Source: Escherichia coli
GTDB taxonomy: Bacteria; Pseudomonadota; Gammaproteobacteria; Enterobacterales; Enterobacteriaceae
Assembly (NCBI RefSeq): GCF_003334335.1
Contig: NZ_QOWQ01000022.1
Strand: one strand, 5' to 3'
Length of the DNA: 64,000 bases
Shown: in pieces, positions 1 through 21,349 of the stretch
Numbering within the stretch: position 1 is the stretch's first letter
Layout of the letters: each line of letters begins with the position of its first letter
Notes under the pieces: generated by a model
Seen by the model: only the letters and a program-made list of their open reading frames with translations
What the model was told of the DNA's origin: nothing
Database searches by the model: none
Program-made: the position numbers and the translations under genes

Positions 1-90
1 TCCATAAATTAACCTTCATTTGATGCTGGATTGAACATATCAAAATCAGGCAATTACACAAATCTATGTACAGGCTCCTTTACGGGGAAA

Positions 91-831
91 TTAGAACATT
101 ACCTTATGACCGTACTGCTCAAGAATGCCTTTCACGCGTTCCATGGTCTCTTTCTTCGGTGGTTTAACACCGTCGAGTTTGTACTCTTCACCCATTGCCA
201 CCCATTTGTGTTTGCCCAGCTCGTGGTAGGGGAGAAGCTCGATTTTCTCAACGTTGCCCATATCACGGGTAAATTCACCGAGGCGATGCGCTGAATCGTC
301 ATCGTCAGACCAGCCTGGGACAACAACGTAGCGGATCCACACCTTCACATTTTTGTTCGCCAGATATTTAGCGAACTCCAGCGTGCGGTGGTTGGAAACT
401 CCAACCAGATTTTGGTGGATCTCGTCGTTCATCTGTTTGAGATCGAGCATTACCAGGTCGGTTACTTCCAGCAGTTCATCAATCACCGGATCGTAACGAC
501 GAACAAAACCGTTGGTGTCCAGACAGGTATGAATGCCTTCTTTTTTGCAGGCGCGGAACCAGTCACGAACAAACTCAGCTTGCAGGATTGCTTCACCGCC
601 GGATGCGGTAACGCCGCCGCCGGAAGCGTTCATAAAGTGGCGATAGGTCACCACTTCCTTCATCAAATCTTCAACGGTAACTTCTTTACCGCCATGCGTG
701 TCCCAGGTGTCGCGGTTATGACAATACAGGCAGCGCATCAGGCAGCCCTGGAAAAAGGTGATAAAGCGAATACCTGGGCCGTCTACGGTTCCACAGGATT
801 CAAAGGAGTGAATGCGACCAATAACTGACAT
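91..831 (-). CDS. pflA: pyruvate formate-lyase activating enzyme (radical SAM); start set at [10 protein letters not shown], 9 codons inside the longest ORF
   Basis: ORF 91..858(-); CxxxCxxC radical-SAM motif ([10 protein letters not shown]) visible; position downstream of pflB. Confidence 0.93.
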
Positions 832-954
832 TGCGGTGTTTCTCCAGATGTGGCCCATCTGAGGCCGTGTTGGTGCGCAGCTCGAAGGCTACGTCGAGTC
901 TGTTTTGGCAGTCACCTTAAAGTATAGATAGCTGACAAAAAAGGCTCTCGCGCT

Positions 955-982
955 AAAAAAGGCCCCACTTTCGTGGAGCCTT
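955..982 (-). terminator. putative intrinsic terminator downstream of pflB
   Basis: minus-strand hairpin GGCUCCAC-GAAA-GUGGGGCC followed by U-run, just 3' of the pflB stop. Confidence 0.6.
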
Positions 983-1022
983 TATTGTACGCTTTTTACT
1001 GTACGATTTCAGTCAAATCTAA

Positions 1023-3305
<2,283 letters not shown>

Positions 3306-11745: not shown

Positions 11746-13419
11746 ATGACTGAATCTTTTGCTCAACTCTTTGAAGAGTCCTTAAAAGAAATCGAAACCC
11801 GCCCGGGTTCTATCGTTCGTGGCGTTGTTGTTGCTATCGACAAAGACGTAGTACTGGTTGACGCTGGTCTGAAATCTGAGTCCGCCATCCCGGCTGAGCA
11901 GTTCAAAAACGCCCAGGGCGAGCTGGAAATCCAGGTAGGTGACGAAGTTGACGTTGCTCTGGACGCAGTAGAAGACGGCTTCGGTGAAACTCTGCTGTCC
12001 CGTGAGAAAGCTAAACGTCACGAAGCCTGGATCACGCTGGAAAAAGCTTACGAAGATGCTGAAACTGTTACCGGTGTTATCAACGGCAAAGTTAAGGGCG
12101 GCTTCACTGTTGAGCTGAACGGTATTCGTGCGTTCCTGCCAGGTTCTCTGGTAGACGTTCGTCCGGTGCGTGACACTCTGCACTTGGAAGGCAAAGAGCT
12201 TGAATTTAAAGTAATCAAGCTGGATCAGAAGCGCAACAACGTTGTTGTTTCTCGTCGTGCCGTTATCGAATCCGAAAACAGCGCAGAGCGCGATCAGCTG
12301 CTGGAAAACCTGCAGGAAGGCATGGAAGTTAAAGGTATCGTTAAGAACCTCACTGACTACGGTGCATTCGTTGATCTGGGCGGCGTTGACGGCCTGCTGC
12401 ACATCACTGACATGGCCTGGAAACGCGTTAAGCATCCGAGCGAAATCGTCAACGTGGGCGACGAAATCACTGTTAAAGTGCTGAAGTTCGACCGCGAACG
12501 TACCCGTGTATCCCTGGGCCTGAAACAGCTGGGCGAAGATCCGTGGGTAGCTATCGCTAAACGTTATCCGGAAGGTACCAAACTGACTGGTCGCGTGACC
12601 AACCTGACCGACTACGGCTGCTTCGTTGAAATCGAAGAAGGCGTTGAAGGCTTGGTACACGTTTCCGAAATGGATTGGACCAACAAAAACATCCACCCGT
12701 CCAAAGTTGTTAACGTTGGCGATGTAGTGGAAGTTATGGTTCTGGATATCGACGAAGAACGTCGTCGTATCTCCCTGGGTCTGAAACAGTGCAAAGCTAA
12801 CCCGTGGCAGCAGTTCGCGGAAACCCACAACAAGGGCGACCGTGTTGAAGGTAAAATCAAGTCTATCACTGACTTCGGTATCTTCATCGGCCTGGACGGC
12901 GGCATCGACGGCCTGGTTCACCTGTCTGACATCTCCTGGAACGTTGCAGGCGAAGAAGCAGTTCGTGAATACAAAAAAGGCGACGAAATCGCTGCAGTTG
13001 TTCTGCAGGTTGACGCAGAACGTGAACGTATCTCCCTGGGCGTTAAACAGCTCGCAGAAGATCCGTTCAACAACTGGGTTGCTCTGAACAAGAAAGGCGC
13101 TATCGTAACCGGTAAAGTAACTGCAGTTGACGCTAAAGGCGCAACCGTAGAACTGGCTGACGGCGTTGAAGGTTACCTGCGTGCTTCTGAAGCATCCCGT
13201 GACCGCGTTGAAGACGCTACCCTGGTTCTGAGCGTTGGCGACGAAGTTGAAGCTAAATTCACCGGCGTTGATCGTAAAAACCGCGCAATCAGCCTGTCTG
13301 TTCGTGCGAAAGACGAAGCTGACGAGAAAGATGCAATCGCAACTGTTAACAAACAGGAAGATGCAAACTTCTCCAACAACGCAATGGCTGAAGCTTTCAA
13401 AGCAGCTAAAGGCGAGTAA
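11746..13419 (+). CDS. rpsA: 30S ribosomal protein S1, 557 aa
   Basis: ORF 11746..13419(+); repeated S1 domains; high-expression codon usage. Confidence 0.98.
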
Positions 13420-13578
13420 TTCTCTGACTCTTCGGGATTTTTATTCCGAAGTTTGTTGAGTTTACTTGACAGATTGCAGGTTTCGTCCTGTAATCAAGCA
13501 CTAAGGGCGGCTACGGCCGCCCTTAATCAATGCAGCAACAGCAGCCGCTTAATTTGCCTTTAAGGAACCGGAGGAATC

Positions 13579-13863
13579 ATGACCAAGTCAGAATTGATAG
13601 AAAGACTTGCCACCCAGCAATCGCACATTCCCGCCAAGACGGTTGAAGATGCAGTAAAAGAGATGCTGGAGCATATGGCCTCGACTCTTGCGCAGGGCGA
13701 GCGTATTGAAATCCGCGGTTTCGGCAGTTTCTCTTTGCACTACCGCGCACCACGTACCGGACGTAATCCGAAGACTGGCGATAAAGTAGAACTGGAAGGA
13801 AAATACGTTCCTCACTTTAAACCTGGTAAAGAACTGCGCGATCGCGCCAATATTTACGGTTAA
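13579..13863 (+). CDS. ihfB: integration host factor beta subunit, 94 aa
   Basis: ORF 13579..13863(+); [11 protein letters not shown]...; followed by terminator hairpin. Confidence 0.97.
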
Positions 13864-13890
13864 GTTTTTTACTCAAACTTGAACGAGAGA

Positions 13891-13916
13891 AAAGCACCTG
13901 TCGGGTGCTTTTTTCA
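13891..13916 (+). terminator. intrinsic terminator after ihfB
   Basis: AGCACC-TGTC-GGGTGCT followed by TTTTTT. Confidence 0.7.
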
Positions 13917-14070
13917 TTTCTCTAATCTGGAACTGGAAGCTGCCTCGCAGAGTTTTGAACAGTTTTCACCCTTTCGTTAAATTCTTCTGAATATGCCTCG
14001 GGGAACGCAAAATTCCCACCAGACAACCGCTCAACAAAGTTGCACACTTTCCATAAACAGGGAGGGGTGC

Positions 14071-16335
14071 ATGAAAATAACGACAGTCGGTGTATGCATA
14101 ATTAGCGGAATTTTTCCGTTGCTGATTTTGCCCCAATTGCCTGGGACATTAACCCTTGCGTTTCTGACTCTCTTCGCCTGCGTACTGGCATTTATCCCTG
14201 TTAAAACCGTCCGTTATATCGCGCTGACGTTGCTGTTTTTCGTTTGGGGCATATTATCAGCAAAGCAAATTTTGTGGGCAGGAGAAACCTTAACTGGCGC
14301 GACGCAGGATGCAATTGTTGAGATCACTGCAACTGACGGCATGACCACTCATTACGGTCAAATTACTCATCTACAAGGTCGACGTATATTCCCTGCGTCA
14401 GGTCTCGTGATGTATGGCGAATATCTTCCGCAAGCGGTTTGTGCTGGACAACAATGGTCAATGAAACTCAAAGTTCGTGCAGTTCATGGCCAACTTAATG
14501 ATGGCGGCTTTGATAGCCAGCGTTATGCCATTGCCCAGCATCAGCCGCTCACCGGCCGTTTTCTGCAGGCAAGTGTCATTGAACCGAATTGTAGCCTGCG
14601 TGCACAGTATCTGGCGTCACTACAAACAACGCTGCAACCCTATCCGTGGAATGCGGTTATTCTTGGTTTAGGTATGGGGGAACGGTTATCCGTCCCCAAA
14701 GAAATCAAAAATATCATGCGCGATACTGGAACGGCGCATTTAATGGCGATATCGGGATTGCACATCGCTTTTGCGGCGTTGCTGGCTGCCGGACTCATTC
14801 GCAGTGGACAAATTTTTCTGCCTGGGCGCTGGATCCACTGGCAAATACCATTAATTGGCGGAATCTGCTGTGCTGCTTTTTATGCCTGGTTGACGGGAAT
14901 GCAACCTCCTGCATTGCGTACCATGGTGGCGCTTGCTACGTGGGGAATGCTTAAGTTAAGTGGGCGACAGTGGAGTGGCTGGGATGTATGGATATGTTGT
15001 CTGGCGGCAATTTTGCTGATGGATCCTGTTGCCATTCTCTCGCAAAGTTTATGGCTCTCTGCCGCTGCGGTCGCGGCATTGATATTTTGGTATCAGTGGT
15101 TTCCCTGTCCTGAGTGGCAACTGCCGCCGGTATTGCGTGCAGTTGTTTCCCTCATCCATCTGCAACTGGGAATCACACTTCTGCTTATGCCCGTGCAAAT
15201 CGTCATATTTCATGGCATTAGTCTGACCTCGTTTATTGCAAATCTATTAGCAATTCCCTTGGTGACATTTATCACGGTTCCGTTGATCCTCGCCGCGATG
15301 GTTGTGCATTTAAGCGGGCCGTTAATCCTGGAGCAAGGGTTATGGTTTCTTGCCGACCGGTCTTTGGCTTTACTTTTCTGGGGGTTAAAGAGTTTGCCGG
15401 AAGGGTGGATCAACATTGCTGAATGTTGGCAATGGCTATCATTTTCCCCATGGTTCTTACTGGTGGTATGGCGATTAAACGCCTGGCGAACGTTGCCAGC
15501 AATGTGTGTGGCTGGAGGCTTGCTGATGTGCTGGCCGCTGTGGCAAAAACCTCGACCTGACGAGTGGCAGCTGTACATGCTTGATGTCGGGCAAGGGCTG
15601 GCAATGGTGATAGCCAGAAACGGCAAAGCGATTCTCTATGACACAGGACTGGCCTGGCCTGAAGGGGATAGTGGGCAACAACTGATTATCCCCTGGCTCC
15701 ACTGGCATAATCTTGAACCGGAAGGCGTTATTCTGAGCCATGAACATCTAGATCACCGGGGAGGGCTGGATTCAATATTGCATATATGGCCGATGTTATG
15801 GATCAGAAGTCCGTTAAACTGGGAACATCATCAGCCCTGTGTGCGTGGCGAAGCGTGGCAATGGCAAGGATTGCGTTTCAGCGCGCACTGGCCTTTACAA
15901 GGTAGCAACGATAAAGGAAATAACCATTCCTGTGTGGTTAAGGTTGATGACGGGACGAATAGCATTCTTCTAACCGGTGATATTGAAGCCCCAGCTGAAC
16001 AAAAGATGCTAAGCCGTTACTGGCAGCAAGTGCAGGCAACATTGCTTCAGGTACCTCACCATGGCAGTAATACCTCATCATCGTTGCCATTAATTCAGCG
16101 AGTGAATGGAAAAGTGGCACTCGCATCGGCATCGCGCTATAACGCATGGCGACTGCCCTCTAACAAAGTTAAGCATCGCTATCAACTGCAAGGATATCAA
16201 TGGATTGATACTCCACATCAAGGTCAAACAACGGTCAATTTTTCAGCGCAAGGCTGGCGGATTAGCAGCCTCAGGGAGCAAATTTTACCTCGTTGGTATC
16301 ATCAGTGGTTTGGCGTGCCAGTGGATAACGGGTAG
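14071..16335 (+). CDS. ycaI: ComEC/Rec2-family membrane protein with C-terminal metallo-beta-lactamase domain, 754 aa
   Basis: ORF 13993..16335(+) trimmed to MKITTVGVCII; polytopic N-terminal part; HEHLDHRGG motif. Confidence 0.85.
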   Translation: MKITTVGVCIISGIFPLLILPQLPGTLTLAFLTLFACVLAFIPVKTVRYIALTLLFFVWGILSAKQILWAGETLTGATQDAIVEITATDGMTTHYGQITHLQGRRIFPASGLVMYGEYLPQAVCAGQQWSMKLKVRAVHGQLNDGGFDSQRYAIAQHQPLTGRFLQASVIEPNCSLRAQYLASLQTTLQPYPWNAVILGLGMGERLSVPKEIKNIMRDTGTAHLMAISGLHIAFAALLAAGLIRSGQIFLPGRWIHWQIPLIGGICCAAFYAWLTGMQPPALRTMVALATWGMLKLSGRQWSGWDVWICCLAAILLMDPVAILSQSLWLSAAAVAALIFWYQWFPCPEWQLPPVLRAVVSLIHLQLGITLLLMPVQIVIFHGISLTSFIANLLAIPLVTFITVPLILAAMVVHLSGPLILEQGLWFLADRSLALLFWGLKSLPEGWINIAECWQWLSFSPWFLLVVWRLNAWRTLPAMCVAGGLLMCWPLWQKPRPDEWQLYMLDVGQGLAMVIARNGKAILYDTGLAWPEGDSGQQLIIPWLHWHNLEPEGVILSHEHLDHRGGLDSILHIWPMLWIRSPLNWEHHQPCVRGEAWQWQGLRFSAHWPLQGSNDKGNNHSCVVKVDDGTNSILLTGDIEAPAEQKMLSRYWQQVQATLLQVPHHGSNTSSSLPLIQRVNGKVALASASRYNAWRLPSNKVKHRYQLQGYQWIDTPHQGQTTVNFSAQGWRISSLREQILPRWYHQWFGVPVDNG

Positions 16336-16371
16336 AATATGCGGCTATTTCAACAAATGCTGGTTTTTTGA

Positions 16372-18120
16372 ATGCATAACGACAAAGATCTCTCTACGTG
16401 GCAGACATTCCGCCGACTGTGGCCAACCATTGCGCCTTTCAAAGCGGGTCTGATCGTGGCGGGCGTAGCGTTAATCCTCAACGCAGCCAGCGATACCTTC
16501 ATGTTATCGCTCCTTAAGCCACTTCTTGATGATGGCTTTGGTAAAACAGATCGCTCCGTGCTGGTGTGGATGCCGCTGGTGGTGATCGGGCTGATGATTT
16601 TACGTGGTATCACCAGCTATGTCTCCAGCTACTGTATCTCCTGGGTATCAGGAAAGGTGGTAATGACCATGCGTCGCCGCCTGTTTGGTCACATGATGGG
16701 AATGCCAGTTTCATTCTTTGACAAACAGTCAACGGGTACGCTGTTGTCACGTATTACCTACGATTCCGAACAGGTTGCTTCTTCTTCTTCCGGCGCACTG
16801 ATTACTGTTGTGCGTGAAGGTGCGTCGATCATCGGCCTGTTCATCATGATGTTCTATTACAGTTGGCAACTGTCGATCATTTTGATTGTGCTGGCACCGA
16901 TTGTTTCGATTGCGATTCGCGTTGTATCGAAGCGTTTTCGCAACATCAGTAAAAACATGCAGAACACCATGGGGCAGGTGACCACCAGCGCAGAACAAAT
17001 GCTGAAGGGCCACAAAGAAGTATTGATTTTCGGTGGTCAGGAAGTGGAAACGAAACGCTTTGATAAAGTCAGCAACCGAATGCGTCTTCAGGGGATGAAA
17101 ATGGTTTCAGCCTCTTCCATCTCTGATCCGATCATTCAGCTGATCGCCTCTTTGGCGCTGGCGTTTGTTCTGTATGCGGCGAGCTTCCCAAGTGTCATGG
17201 ATAGCCTGACTGCCGGTACGATTACCGTTGTTTTCTCTTCAATGATTGCACTGATGCGTCCGCTGAAATCGCTGACCAACGTTAACGCCCAGTTCCAGCG
17301 CGGTATGGCGGCTTGTCAGACGCTGTTTACCATTCTGGACAGTGAGCAGGAGAAAGATGAAGGTAAGCGCGTGATCGAGCGTGCGACTGGCGACGTGGAA
17401 TTCCGCAATGTCACCTTTACTTATCCGGGACGTGACGTACCTGCATTGCGTAACATCAACCTGAAAATTCCGGCAGGGAAGACGGTTGCTCTGGTTGGAC
17501 GCTCTGGTTCGGGTAAATCAACCATCGCCAGCCTGATCACGCGTTTTTACGATATTGATGAAGGCGAAATCCTGATGGATGGTCACGATCTGCGCGAGTA
17601 TACCCTGGCGTCGTTACGTAACCAGGTTGCTCTGGTGTCGCAGAATGTCCATCTGTTTAACGATACGGTTGCTAACAACATTGCTTACGCACGGACTGAA
17701 CAGTACAGCCGTGAGCAAATTGAAGAAGCGGCGCGTATGGCCTACGCCATGGACTTCATCAATAAGATGGATAACGGTCTCGATACAGTGATTGGTGAAA
17801 ACGGCGTGCTGCTCTCTGGCGGTCAGCGTCAGCGTATTGCTATCGCTCGAGCCTTGTTGCGTGATAGCCCGATTCTGATTCTGGACGAAGCTACCTCGGC
17901 TCTGGATACCGAATCCGAACGTGCGATTCAGGCGGCACTGGATGAGTTGCAGAAAAACCGTACCTCTCTGGTGATTGCCCACCGCTTGTCTACCATTGAA
18001 AAGGCAGACGAAATCGTGGTCGTCGAGGATGGTGTCATTGTGGAACGCGGTACGCATAACGATTTGCTTGAGCACCGCGGCGTTTACGCGCAACTTCACA
18101 AAATGCAGTTTGGCCAATGA
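16372..18120 (+). CDS. msbA: lipid A flippase, ABC transporter, 582 aa
   Basis: ORF 16372..18120(+); Walker [10 protein letters not shown], signature LSGGQRQR. Confidence 0.97.
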
Positions 18121-19103
18121 TCGAAAAAATCTGGTCTGGTGAATCCCCTTTGTGGCGGCTATTGCTGCCACTCTCCTGGTTGTATGGCCTGGTGAGTGGC
18201 GCGATCCGTCTTTGCTATAAACTAAAACTGAAGCGCGCCTGGCGTGCCCCCGTACCGGTTGTCGTGGTTGGTAATCTCACCGCAGGCGGCAACGGAAAAA
18301 CCCCGGTCGTTGTCTGGCTGGTGGAACAGTTGCAACAGCGCGGTATTCGCGTGGGGGTCGTATCGCGGGGATATGGTGGTAAGGCTGAATCTTATCCGCT
18401 GTTATTGTCGGCAGATACCACAACAGCACAGGCGGGTGATGAACCTGTGTTGATTTATCAACGCACTGATGCGCCTGTTGCGGTTTCTCCCGTTCGTTCT
18501 GATGCGGTAAAAGCCATTCTGGCGCAACACCCTGATGTGCAGATCATCGTAACCGACGACGGTTTACAGCATTACCGTCTGGCGCGTGATGTGGAAATTG
18601 TCGTTATTGATGGTGTGCGTCGCTTTGGCAATGGCTGGTGGTTGCCGGCGGGGCCAATGCGTGAGCGAGCGGGGCGCTTAAAGTCGGTTGATGCGGTAAT
18701 CGTCAACGGCGGTGTCCCTCGCAGCGGTGAAATCCCCATGCATCTGCTGCCGGGTCAGGCGGTGAATTTACGTACCGGTACGCGTTGTGACGTTGCTCAG
18801 CTTGAACATGTAGTGGCGATGGCGGGGATTGGGCATCCGCCGCGCTTTTTTGCCACGCTGAAGATGTGTGGCGTACAACCGGAAAAATGTGTACCGCTGG
18901 CCGATCATCAGTCTTTGAACCATGCGGATGTCAGTGCGTTGGTAAGCGCCGGGCAAACGCTGGTAATGACTGAAAAAGATGCGGTGAAATGCCGGGCCTT
19001 TGCAGAAGAAAATTGGTGGTATTTGCCTGTAGACGCACAGCTTTCAGGTGATGAACCAGCGAAACTGCTTACGCAACTAACCTTGCTGGCTTCTGGCAAC
19101 TAG
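18117..19103 (+). CDS. lpxK: tetraacyldisaccharide 4'-kinase, 328 aa
   Basis: ORF 18117..19103(+); 4-nt overlap with msbA stop; P-loop [11 protein letters not shown]. Confidence 0.95.

Positions 19104-20423: not shown

Positions 20424-21349
<926 letters not shown>

Follow-up and report, generated by a model that had tools for sequence, protein, structure and literature searches.

What is a DNA-uptake gene doing beside the genes of lipid A export in Escherichia coli? The question is raised by a 64,000-nucleotide stretch of an E. coli contig (NZ_QOWQ01000022.1; hereafter the window), in which an open reading frame at 14071-16335 lies directly upstream of msbA and lpxK. A first-pass annotation, made from the sequence alone, had read this frame as a ComEC/Rec2-type homologue at the head of the lipid A export operon. 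The frame is E. coli ycaI, an orthologue of the gammaproteobacterial Rec2/ComEC DNA importer, and our analysis makes probable the transport mechanism and regulation proposed below, together with a promoter of their own, msbAp, for the genes that follow. Databases or papers already contain the gene and its assignment to the family, the phenotypes of its deletion, the label of the operon, and the msbA promoter, and the main value of the exercise is that of a check: the gene was correctly identified from raw sequence. What the present analysis adds is that the -10 element of msbAp, as located here, coincides with the stop region of comEC and is conserved across several gammaproteobacterial orders, an arrangement that would account for the fixed gene order.

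The gene and the features encoded within it are placed as follows:
14071-16335, plus strand: ycaI coding sequence (ATG 14071, TAG 16333-16335; 754 amino acids; ComEC/Rec2 family protein)
14061-14065, plus strand: Shine-Dalgarno sequence GGAGG of ycaI; CAGGGAGG is kept directly 5' of the ATG in relatives
14149-14541, plus strand: OB-fold region, DUF4131 (PF13567), amino acids 27-157 (Pfam E=5.6e-5; a weak match, at the expected position)
14671-15471, plus strand: Competence domain PF03772, the polytopic channel, amino acids 201-467 (Pfam E=4.1e-53); includes HLMAISGLH
15583-16128, plus strand: metallo-beta-lactamase (MBL)-fold nuclease domain, Lactamase_B PF00753, amino acids 505-686 (Pfam E=3.5e-23)
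15739-15756, plus strand: MBL motif II, H557-E-H559-L-D561-H562 (H557, D561 and H562 invariant, 559 His or Asp; n=42)

Over ycaI and its flanks the DNA is 100% identical to that of E. coli K-12 strains, in which RefSeq annotates the gene as 'ycaI: ComEC family protein'; the product shows no difference from K-12 YcaI (WP_000705764.1), and the neighbours are the same. The gene order in the window, serC-aroA-ycaL-cmk-rpsA-ihfB-ycaI-msbA-lpxK-ycaQ-ycaR-kdsB, is that of K-12 from rpsA on. A longer frame of 780 amino acids, opening at ATG 13993, was considered and rejected: its 26 additional codons (13993-14070) have no Shine-Dalgarno sequence and are unconserved in relatives, while CAGGGAGG and the ATG behind it are conserved, and ATG 14071 is therefore the right start.

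The proposed membership of the ComEC/Rec2 family is borne out by profile hidden Markov models, by Pfam, and by solved structures. Among the NCBIfam models, TIGR00361 (ComEC_Rec2) scores 1129 bits against a cut-off of 190, with amino acids 65-718 covering profile positions 1-663 of 663, and NF008580 scores 1309 bits against a cut-off of 969. The architecture that had been described, a membrane domain followed by a C-terminal metallo-beta-lactamase nuclease, is recovered by detection of both PF03772 and PF00753, and hydrophobic 19-residue windows extend across amino acids 225-412. The weak OB-fold match completes the three domains seen in the cryo-electron microscopy (cryo-EM) structure of ComEC (bioRxiv 10.64898/2026.04.23.720307); in ComEC the OB fold is a periplasmic DNA-binding module that feeds DNA to the nuclease (PMC12455585).

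The closest structural matches are the solved gammaproteobacterial Rec2/ComEC chains 9vc9 (E=1.1e-77), 9vcb (2.7e-74), and 9vcf (3.5e-74), co-linear with YcaI over residues 105-747; among the loci compared, Shewanella is the closest to these chains. They share with YcaI the three domains and the signatures DVGQGLA, NN-SCV, LLTGDIE, PHHGS, and a C-terminal WY..F, and differ at motif II, which is HxDxDH in most other homologues and HxHxDH in YcaI and its Enterobacterales relatives. The deposited chains themselves read SHGANAH or SHSANAH at this motif. We considered a natural loss of the catalytic motif in 9vc9 and 9vcb and rejected it, as the natural homologues are all HxDxDH or HxHxDH; the chains are most likely engineered, catalytically dead D-to-A variants. 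ComEC of the Firmicutes (Bacillus subtilis; Moorella/Neomoorella structures 9ic4, 30bt/30bu/32ks) carries an MBL-fold C-terminal domain with the same ligand set as YcaI, and its nuclease activity is Mn2+-dependent and matters for transformation (PMC8579336). It is, however, far more distant, has HPDADH at motif II, and is encoded in the comE operon with comEA, away from msbA. The Moorella/Neomoorella nuclease-domain structures 9ic4 and 30bt match full-length YcaI at approximately 1e-17 to 1e-21, and the C-terminal domain alone at 1e-18 to 4e-18. Beyond the family, RNase J and other beta-CASP MBL nucleic-acid hydrolases have in common with YcaI the fold, the two-metal hydrolytic chemistry, and a canonical HxHxDH, but they are soluble, lack a channel domain, and bind substrate through the beta-CASP domain rather than an OB fold (PMC12455585).

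The conservation of the motif residues was followed in an alignment of YcaI with 41 homologues (26-50% identity) drawn from a search of 1.84 billion cluster representatives. The HEHLDHRGG motif picked out in the first-pass annotation is present, as SHEHLDHRGG, at 15736-15765, and the surrounding lactamase motifs are likewise kept: D505 (motif I), H557/D561/H562 (motif II), N617, D637 (motif IV), H663 and H664 (motif V), and S666 are invariant in the 42 sequences. The asparagine equivalent to N617 substitutes for the motif III histidine in ComEC (PMC8579336), and the equivalent of S666 is the substrate serine (PMC12455585); YcaI thus retains all five metal-binding motifs (I-V). At position 559, YcaI and its 15 most similar sequences have His (HxHxDH) and the 26 more distant ones Asp (HxDxDH), either of which can bind metal. 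Also invariant among the 42 homologues is the signature of the channel (H223, I227, S228, G229, H231).

The current model of ComEC assigns binding of the duplex to the OB fold, degradation of one strand to the MBL domain, and conduction of the other to the Competence domain (PMC8579336, PMC12455585, and the 2026 cryo-EM preprint). By extension from this family biochemistry, duplex DNA arriving by way of the HofQ secretin and the type IV pilus would be received by the periplasmic OB fold of YcaI; one strand would be broken down by the Mn2+-dependent MBL domain, and its partner would enter the cytoplasm by the channel of the Competence domain. E. coli holds a full set of competence homologues, ycaI included, which are Sxy-responsive and support only very weak DNA uptake; Sxy-induced, hofQ-dependent uptake has been detected in this species solely with the help of lambda Red (PMC3330819).

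The region upstream of ycaI bears on how such a protein might be regulated:
13887-13915, plus strand: intrinsic terminator of ihfB (13-bp stem and T-run; kept in Klebsiella, Citrobacter, and other genera)
13931-13952, plus strand: candidate CRP-S (Sxy-dependent CRP) site, with the core TGGAA-GCTGCC-TCGCA (TGGAAGCTGCCTCGCA) at 13934-13949

The strong ihfB terminator isolates ycaI from rpsA-ihfB transcription. The 155 bp between terminator and ATG are poorly conserved in relatives, and a consensus scan of them gave no good match to a sigma-70 promoter; it may be that ycaI is made at a very low level from a weak promoter of its own in this interval. The candidate CRP-S site, the only one found for ycaI, departs from the C6/G17 type TGCGA-N6-TCGCA by two mismatches and has a single good half-site, the right-hand TCGCA. 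Its left half, with G6, fits enterobacterial CRP-S sites as described by Cameron and Redfield (PMC1635313), and cTGaA-N6-TCGCA recurs at about -137 from the ATG in roughly six of eight Enterobacteriaceae, amid the poorly conserved spacer. Expression of sxy induces all the competence-gene homologues of E. coli (PMC3330819). The ycaI promoter would probably belong to the Sxy/CRP-S competence regulon, the site itself being a candidate.

Whether ycaI heads the lipid A export operon is a separate matter, on which the 3' end of the gene bears:
16310-16338, plus strand: msbA promoter-like element (consensus scan): -35 TTGGCG at 16310-16315, 17-nt spacer, -10 TAGAAT at 16333-16338
16336-16371, plus strand: ycaI-msbA spacer of 36 bp, the probable 5' untranslated region (UTR) of msbA; includes the conserved CGGCTATTTC
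16372-18120, plus strand: msbA, lipid A flippase (ATG 16372; 582 amino acids)
18117-19103, plus strand: lpxK, whose start overlaps the msbA stop by 4 nt

The 36-bp interval reported earlier is exact, and the check for a promoter between the two genes located the promoter-like element across the end of ycaI: the TAG of its -10 is the ycaI stop codon, and its -35 lies within Trp-Phe-Gly codons (TGG TTT GGC). Several comparisons support this element as a real promoter. In E. coli, Klebsiella, and Citrobacter alike, ycaI and msbA are exactly 36 bp apart, and the last ~45 nt of ycaI and the whole spacer are nearly invariant, though the proteins are only 61-72% identical; synonymous divergence is 0.21-0.31 in the last 16 codons of ycaI versus approximately 0.8 elsewhere. 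Across 21 Enterobacterales, among them Yersinia, Serratia, Photorhabdus, Arsenophonus, Erwinia, Pectobacterium, and Dickeya, TGGTTTGG and (G)AGTAGAAT are near-invariant while the 17 nt between them vary freely, and CGGCTATTTC, which follows the element, is conserved throughout the order. Vibrio keeps GTAGAAT in another reading frame (...GTA GAA TAG); the constraint must therefore act on the nucleotides, and not on a stop codon or a peptide. TAGAAT is found in Shewanella also, and TACAAT in Haemophilus. More broadly, among 42 loci in which msbA begins at most 400 nt after comEC, an exact TAGAAT occurs within 110 nt 5' of the msbA ATG in 28, nearly always at -37 to -43, and TA[GCA]AAT in 38, set against background expectations per 110 nt of 0.02 and 0.096, respectively; the loci share ancestry, but over such distances silent sites are saturated. 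By these alignments, the TAGAAT/TTGGCG element is conserved across four gammaproteobacterial orders.

Published work on a 57-codon genome, combining Cappable-seq with reporter assays, describes in the passages concerned an essential promoter, msbAp, that overlaps recoded codons and drives an 'msbA-ycaQ operon'. We infer that msbAp is the element at 16310-16338. Its embedding in ycaI explains two problems met in published genome engineering, namely a ycaI TAG that could not be replaced and a lethal synonymous recoding upstream of msbA. In the former case an early stop was placed in ycaI instead, and the strain grew well (PMC4434889). An Rfam scan of 13400-16800 at E<=1 returned nothing near a gathering score and no known RNA element in the spacer or leaders, and a literature search found no msbA transcription start in reviews of lipopolysaccharide (LPS).

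The claim that ycaI is co-transcribed with the genes below it stands only in part. The genes ycaI, msbA, lpxK, and ycaQ lie on one strand with gaps of 36, -4, and 36 bp, a scan found no terminator-like site between ycaI and msbA near 16335, and the label 'ycaI-msbA-lpxK-ycaQ operon' is in use (PMC10328246); read-through from ycaI into msbA is therefore plausible. Yet msbA has an embedded promoter of its own. A Kan cassette in ycaI is viable (PMC8151780), as is a ycaI nonsense allele (PMC12844161), and since IS1, Kan-cassette, and premature-stop alleles of ycaI are all tolerated though msbA is essential, the essential genes must be independent of ycaI transcription. Dependence of the downstream genes on the ycaI promoter, with no promoter inside, is thus not what was found: there is a conserved internal -35/-10, and polar disruptions are viable. 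Functionally, then, the lipid A export operon is not headed by ycaI, which is situated upstream, houses the operon's promoter, and may add read-through. Transcripts begun at ycaI could enter msbA, there being no terminator in between, while msbA-lpxK-ycaQ would be driven mainly by the sigma-70 promoter msbAp. A consequence is that what is seen in ycaI mutants may in truth stem from altered msbA expression. One such case could be the nonsense mutant of DH5alpha, with its modestly reduced chemical and ultrasound transformation and odd permeability read-out (PMC12844161).

The retention of ycaI was examined as well. Every complete E. coli genome searched (5426 of 5426) carries the gene, and in 58 of 60 sampled at even spacing it forms one intact, full-length coding sequence. 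The two exceptions are an IS1 insertion (ATCC 8739) and strain 90-3040, in which the best-matching place holds 52% of the query and the record has a second match place. Four of the approximately 5430 ycaI matches in E. coli genomes fall on records typed as plasmids. IS1A interrupts ycaI (after coding-sequence nt ~1233) in several isolates of natural or laboratory origin, including TKEC21-59 (L004 3001-3698) and ATCC 8739; in these alleles the 3' part of ycaI and msbA are intact. Against the Klebsiella and Citrobacter orthologues, nonsynonymous divergence (pN) is 0.18-0.27 and synonymous divergence (pS) 0.72-0.80; dN/dS is approximately 0.14, a value from a single unsaturated pair, and lower in the neighbours (msbA 0.025, lpxK 0.07-0.11, ycaQ ~0.06). 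Such ratios point to clear purifying selection on ycaI.

Several observations weigh against reading ycaI as a working DNA importer with its own regulation and a separate msbAp downstream. The searched literature contained no experiment showing YcaI itself transporting or cutting DNA, and the Sxy-dependent uptake assay examined hofQ, not ycaI (PMC3330819). The literature also reports ycaI to be dispensable for spontaneous plasmid transformation on plates, and disputes the 'DNA as nutrient' phenotype of competence homologues. The CRP-S pattern at two mismatches occurs 46 times in the window where 45.9 are expected, which leaves the candidate site weak; the passages on msbAp give no coordinates, and its equation with 16310-16338 is ours. 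Finally, ycaI is the fastest-evolving gene of the cluster, and natural IS1 knock-outs of it occur.

These last points are also what would be expected were ycaI a decaying, functionless relic, the locus surviving only through the essential msbA promoter in its 3' end. The embedded promoter does mean that selection would retain the last 30-60 nt at least, the dN/dS of ycaI is the highest of the cluster, isolates with IS1-disrupted alleles (ATCC 8739 among them) are healthy, an engineered early stop was tolerated in a 'highly reproductive' strain (PMC4434889), and natural transformation of E. coli goes undetected without lambda Red (PMC3330819). But promoter constraint protects the 3' end only, yet the 754-codon frame is open in 58 of the 60 sampled genomes; its length is kept in Citrobacter, Klebsiella, Enterobacter, and others; over the full length of the gene, pS exceeds pN three- to fourfold; and all catalytic and channel signature residues are retained. 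Decay is for these reasons an unlikely explanation.

It is likewise unlikely, if slightly less so, that the DNA taken up by YcaI serves chiefly as food or as a source of salvaged nucleotides and not as a substrate for recombination, by the same mechanism but with a catabolic pay-off. Palchevskiy and Finkel, as cited in PMC3330819 and PMC6135910, reported that growth on DNA and fitness in stationary phase require competence homologues; Sxy-induced E. coli yielded transformants only when recombination was supplied from outside (PMC3330819); and the DH5alpha ycaI nonsense mutant reaches a slightly lower optical density in stationary phase (PMC12844161). However, attempts in three laboratories to repeat growth with DNA as the only carbon source were unsuccessful (PMC6135910), and those citing accounts do not confirm ycaI among the genes tested for it.

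The position of ycaI beside msbA is best considered through its distribution. We scanned one genome per species, kept 80 loci, and searched these by tblastn with E. coli MsbA, LpxK, KdsB, and others. The order comEC-msbA-lpxK on one strand, usually followed by kdsB, was found in Enterobacterales, Pasteurellaceae (Haemophilus, Rodentibacter), Vibrionaceae (Vibrio, Aliivibrio), Shewanella, Colwellia, Aliidiomarina, Tolumonas, and Orbaceae. An extra 1.1-1.5 kb separates comEC from msbA in Methylophaga, Kangiella, Methylotenera, and several gammaproteobacterial metagenome-assembled genomes (MAGs) (L041, L058, L062, L066-L068, L071, L073, L082, L084). At three further loci (L040, L063, L074) LpxK was detected downstream of comEC, at L063 with KdsB as well, and MsbA was not. 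Within the available sequence, the comEC-msbA linkage was absent from Legionella and from Betaproteobacteria except a Methylotenera MAG. The comEC-msbA-lpxK order is thus, by its distribution across these genomes, ancestral to a large part of the Gammaproteobacteria. To carry DNA across the inner membrane, Haemophilus influenzae needs Rec2 and Vibrio cholerae needs ComEC; the order is found in genera with naturally transformable members and is therefore no peculiarity of 'non-transformable' E. coli. The contrast first drawn between gene and host is weakened accordingly, the same order being that of Haemophilus and Vibrio and Sxy-induced uptake having been shown in E. coli itself.

Such widespread synteny (comEC-msbA-lpxK, with or without kdsB, in several gammaproteobacterial orders) might instead be taken to mean that YcaI has an envelope or LPS role, co-regulated with lipid A export, and that this explains its place beside msbA-lpxK-kdsB. 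The terminator-free spacer and the operon label (PMC10328246) are compatible with that idea, as are the lowered chemical and ultrasound transformation and odd permeability read-out of the DH5alpha mutant (PMC12844161). We nonetheless regard it as very improbable. No domain of YcaI is related to lipid handling in Pfam or NCBIfam; the same synteny holds in Haemophilus and Vibrio, where Rec2/ComEC is an established DNA-uptake protein; and comEC occurs without an adjacent msbA in Betaproteobacteria and Legionella. The embedded promoter accounts for the synteny without a functional link, msbA has its own essential promoter in the published passages on msbAp, and the DH5alpha phenotypes could themselves be msbA expression effects. 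The tight linkage of ycaI and msbA is not evidence for a ComEC role in lipid A export, and would rather be an ancestral arrangement locked by the embedded promoter.

A functional reason for the order comEC-msbA-lpxK-kdsB can still be conceived while YcaI remains a DNA importer. With no terminator after comEC, read-through from it, when induced through Sxy/CRP-S, might supplement msbAp and so increase both the flipping and the synthesis of lipid A; if true, this would couple envelope remodelling to DNA uptake, though we think it improbable. [quoted passage not shown]

Two smaller observations concern the junctions of the cluster. A mini-ORF fits into the ycaI-msbA spacer (ATG 16339 to TGA 16371; MRLFQQMLVF, 10 codons), its stop abutting the msbA ATG. 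It is kept in Klebsiella and broken by a TAA in Citrobacter werkmanii, and lies mostly upstream of the predicted msbA transcription start; it was rejected as a gene and probably reflects promoter or 5' UTR constraint, not a peptide. Further downstream, the lpxK start overlaps the msbA stop (18117-18120) and the kdsB start overlaps the ycaR stop (20603-20606), each by 4 nt; such overlaps are typical of translational coupling and contrast with the 36-bp, promoter-bearing gap before msbA.

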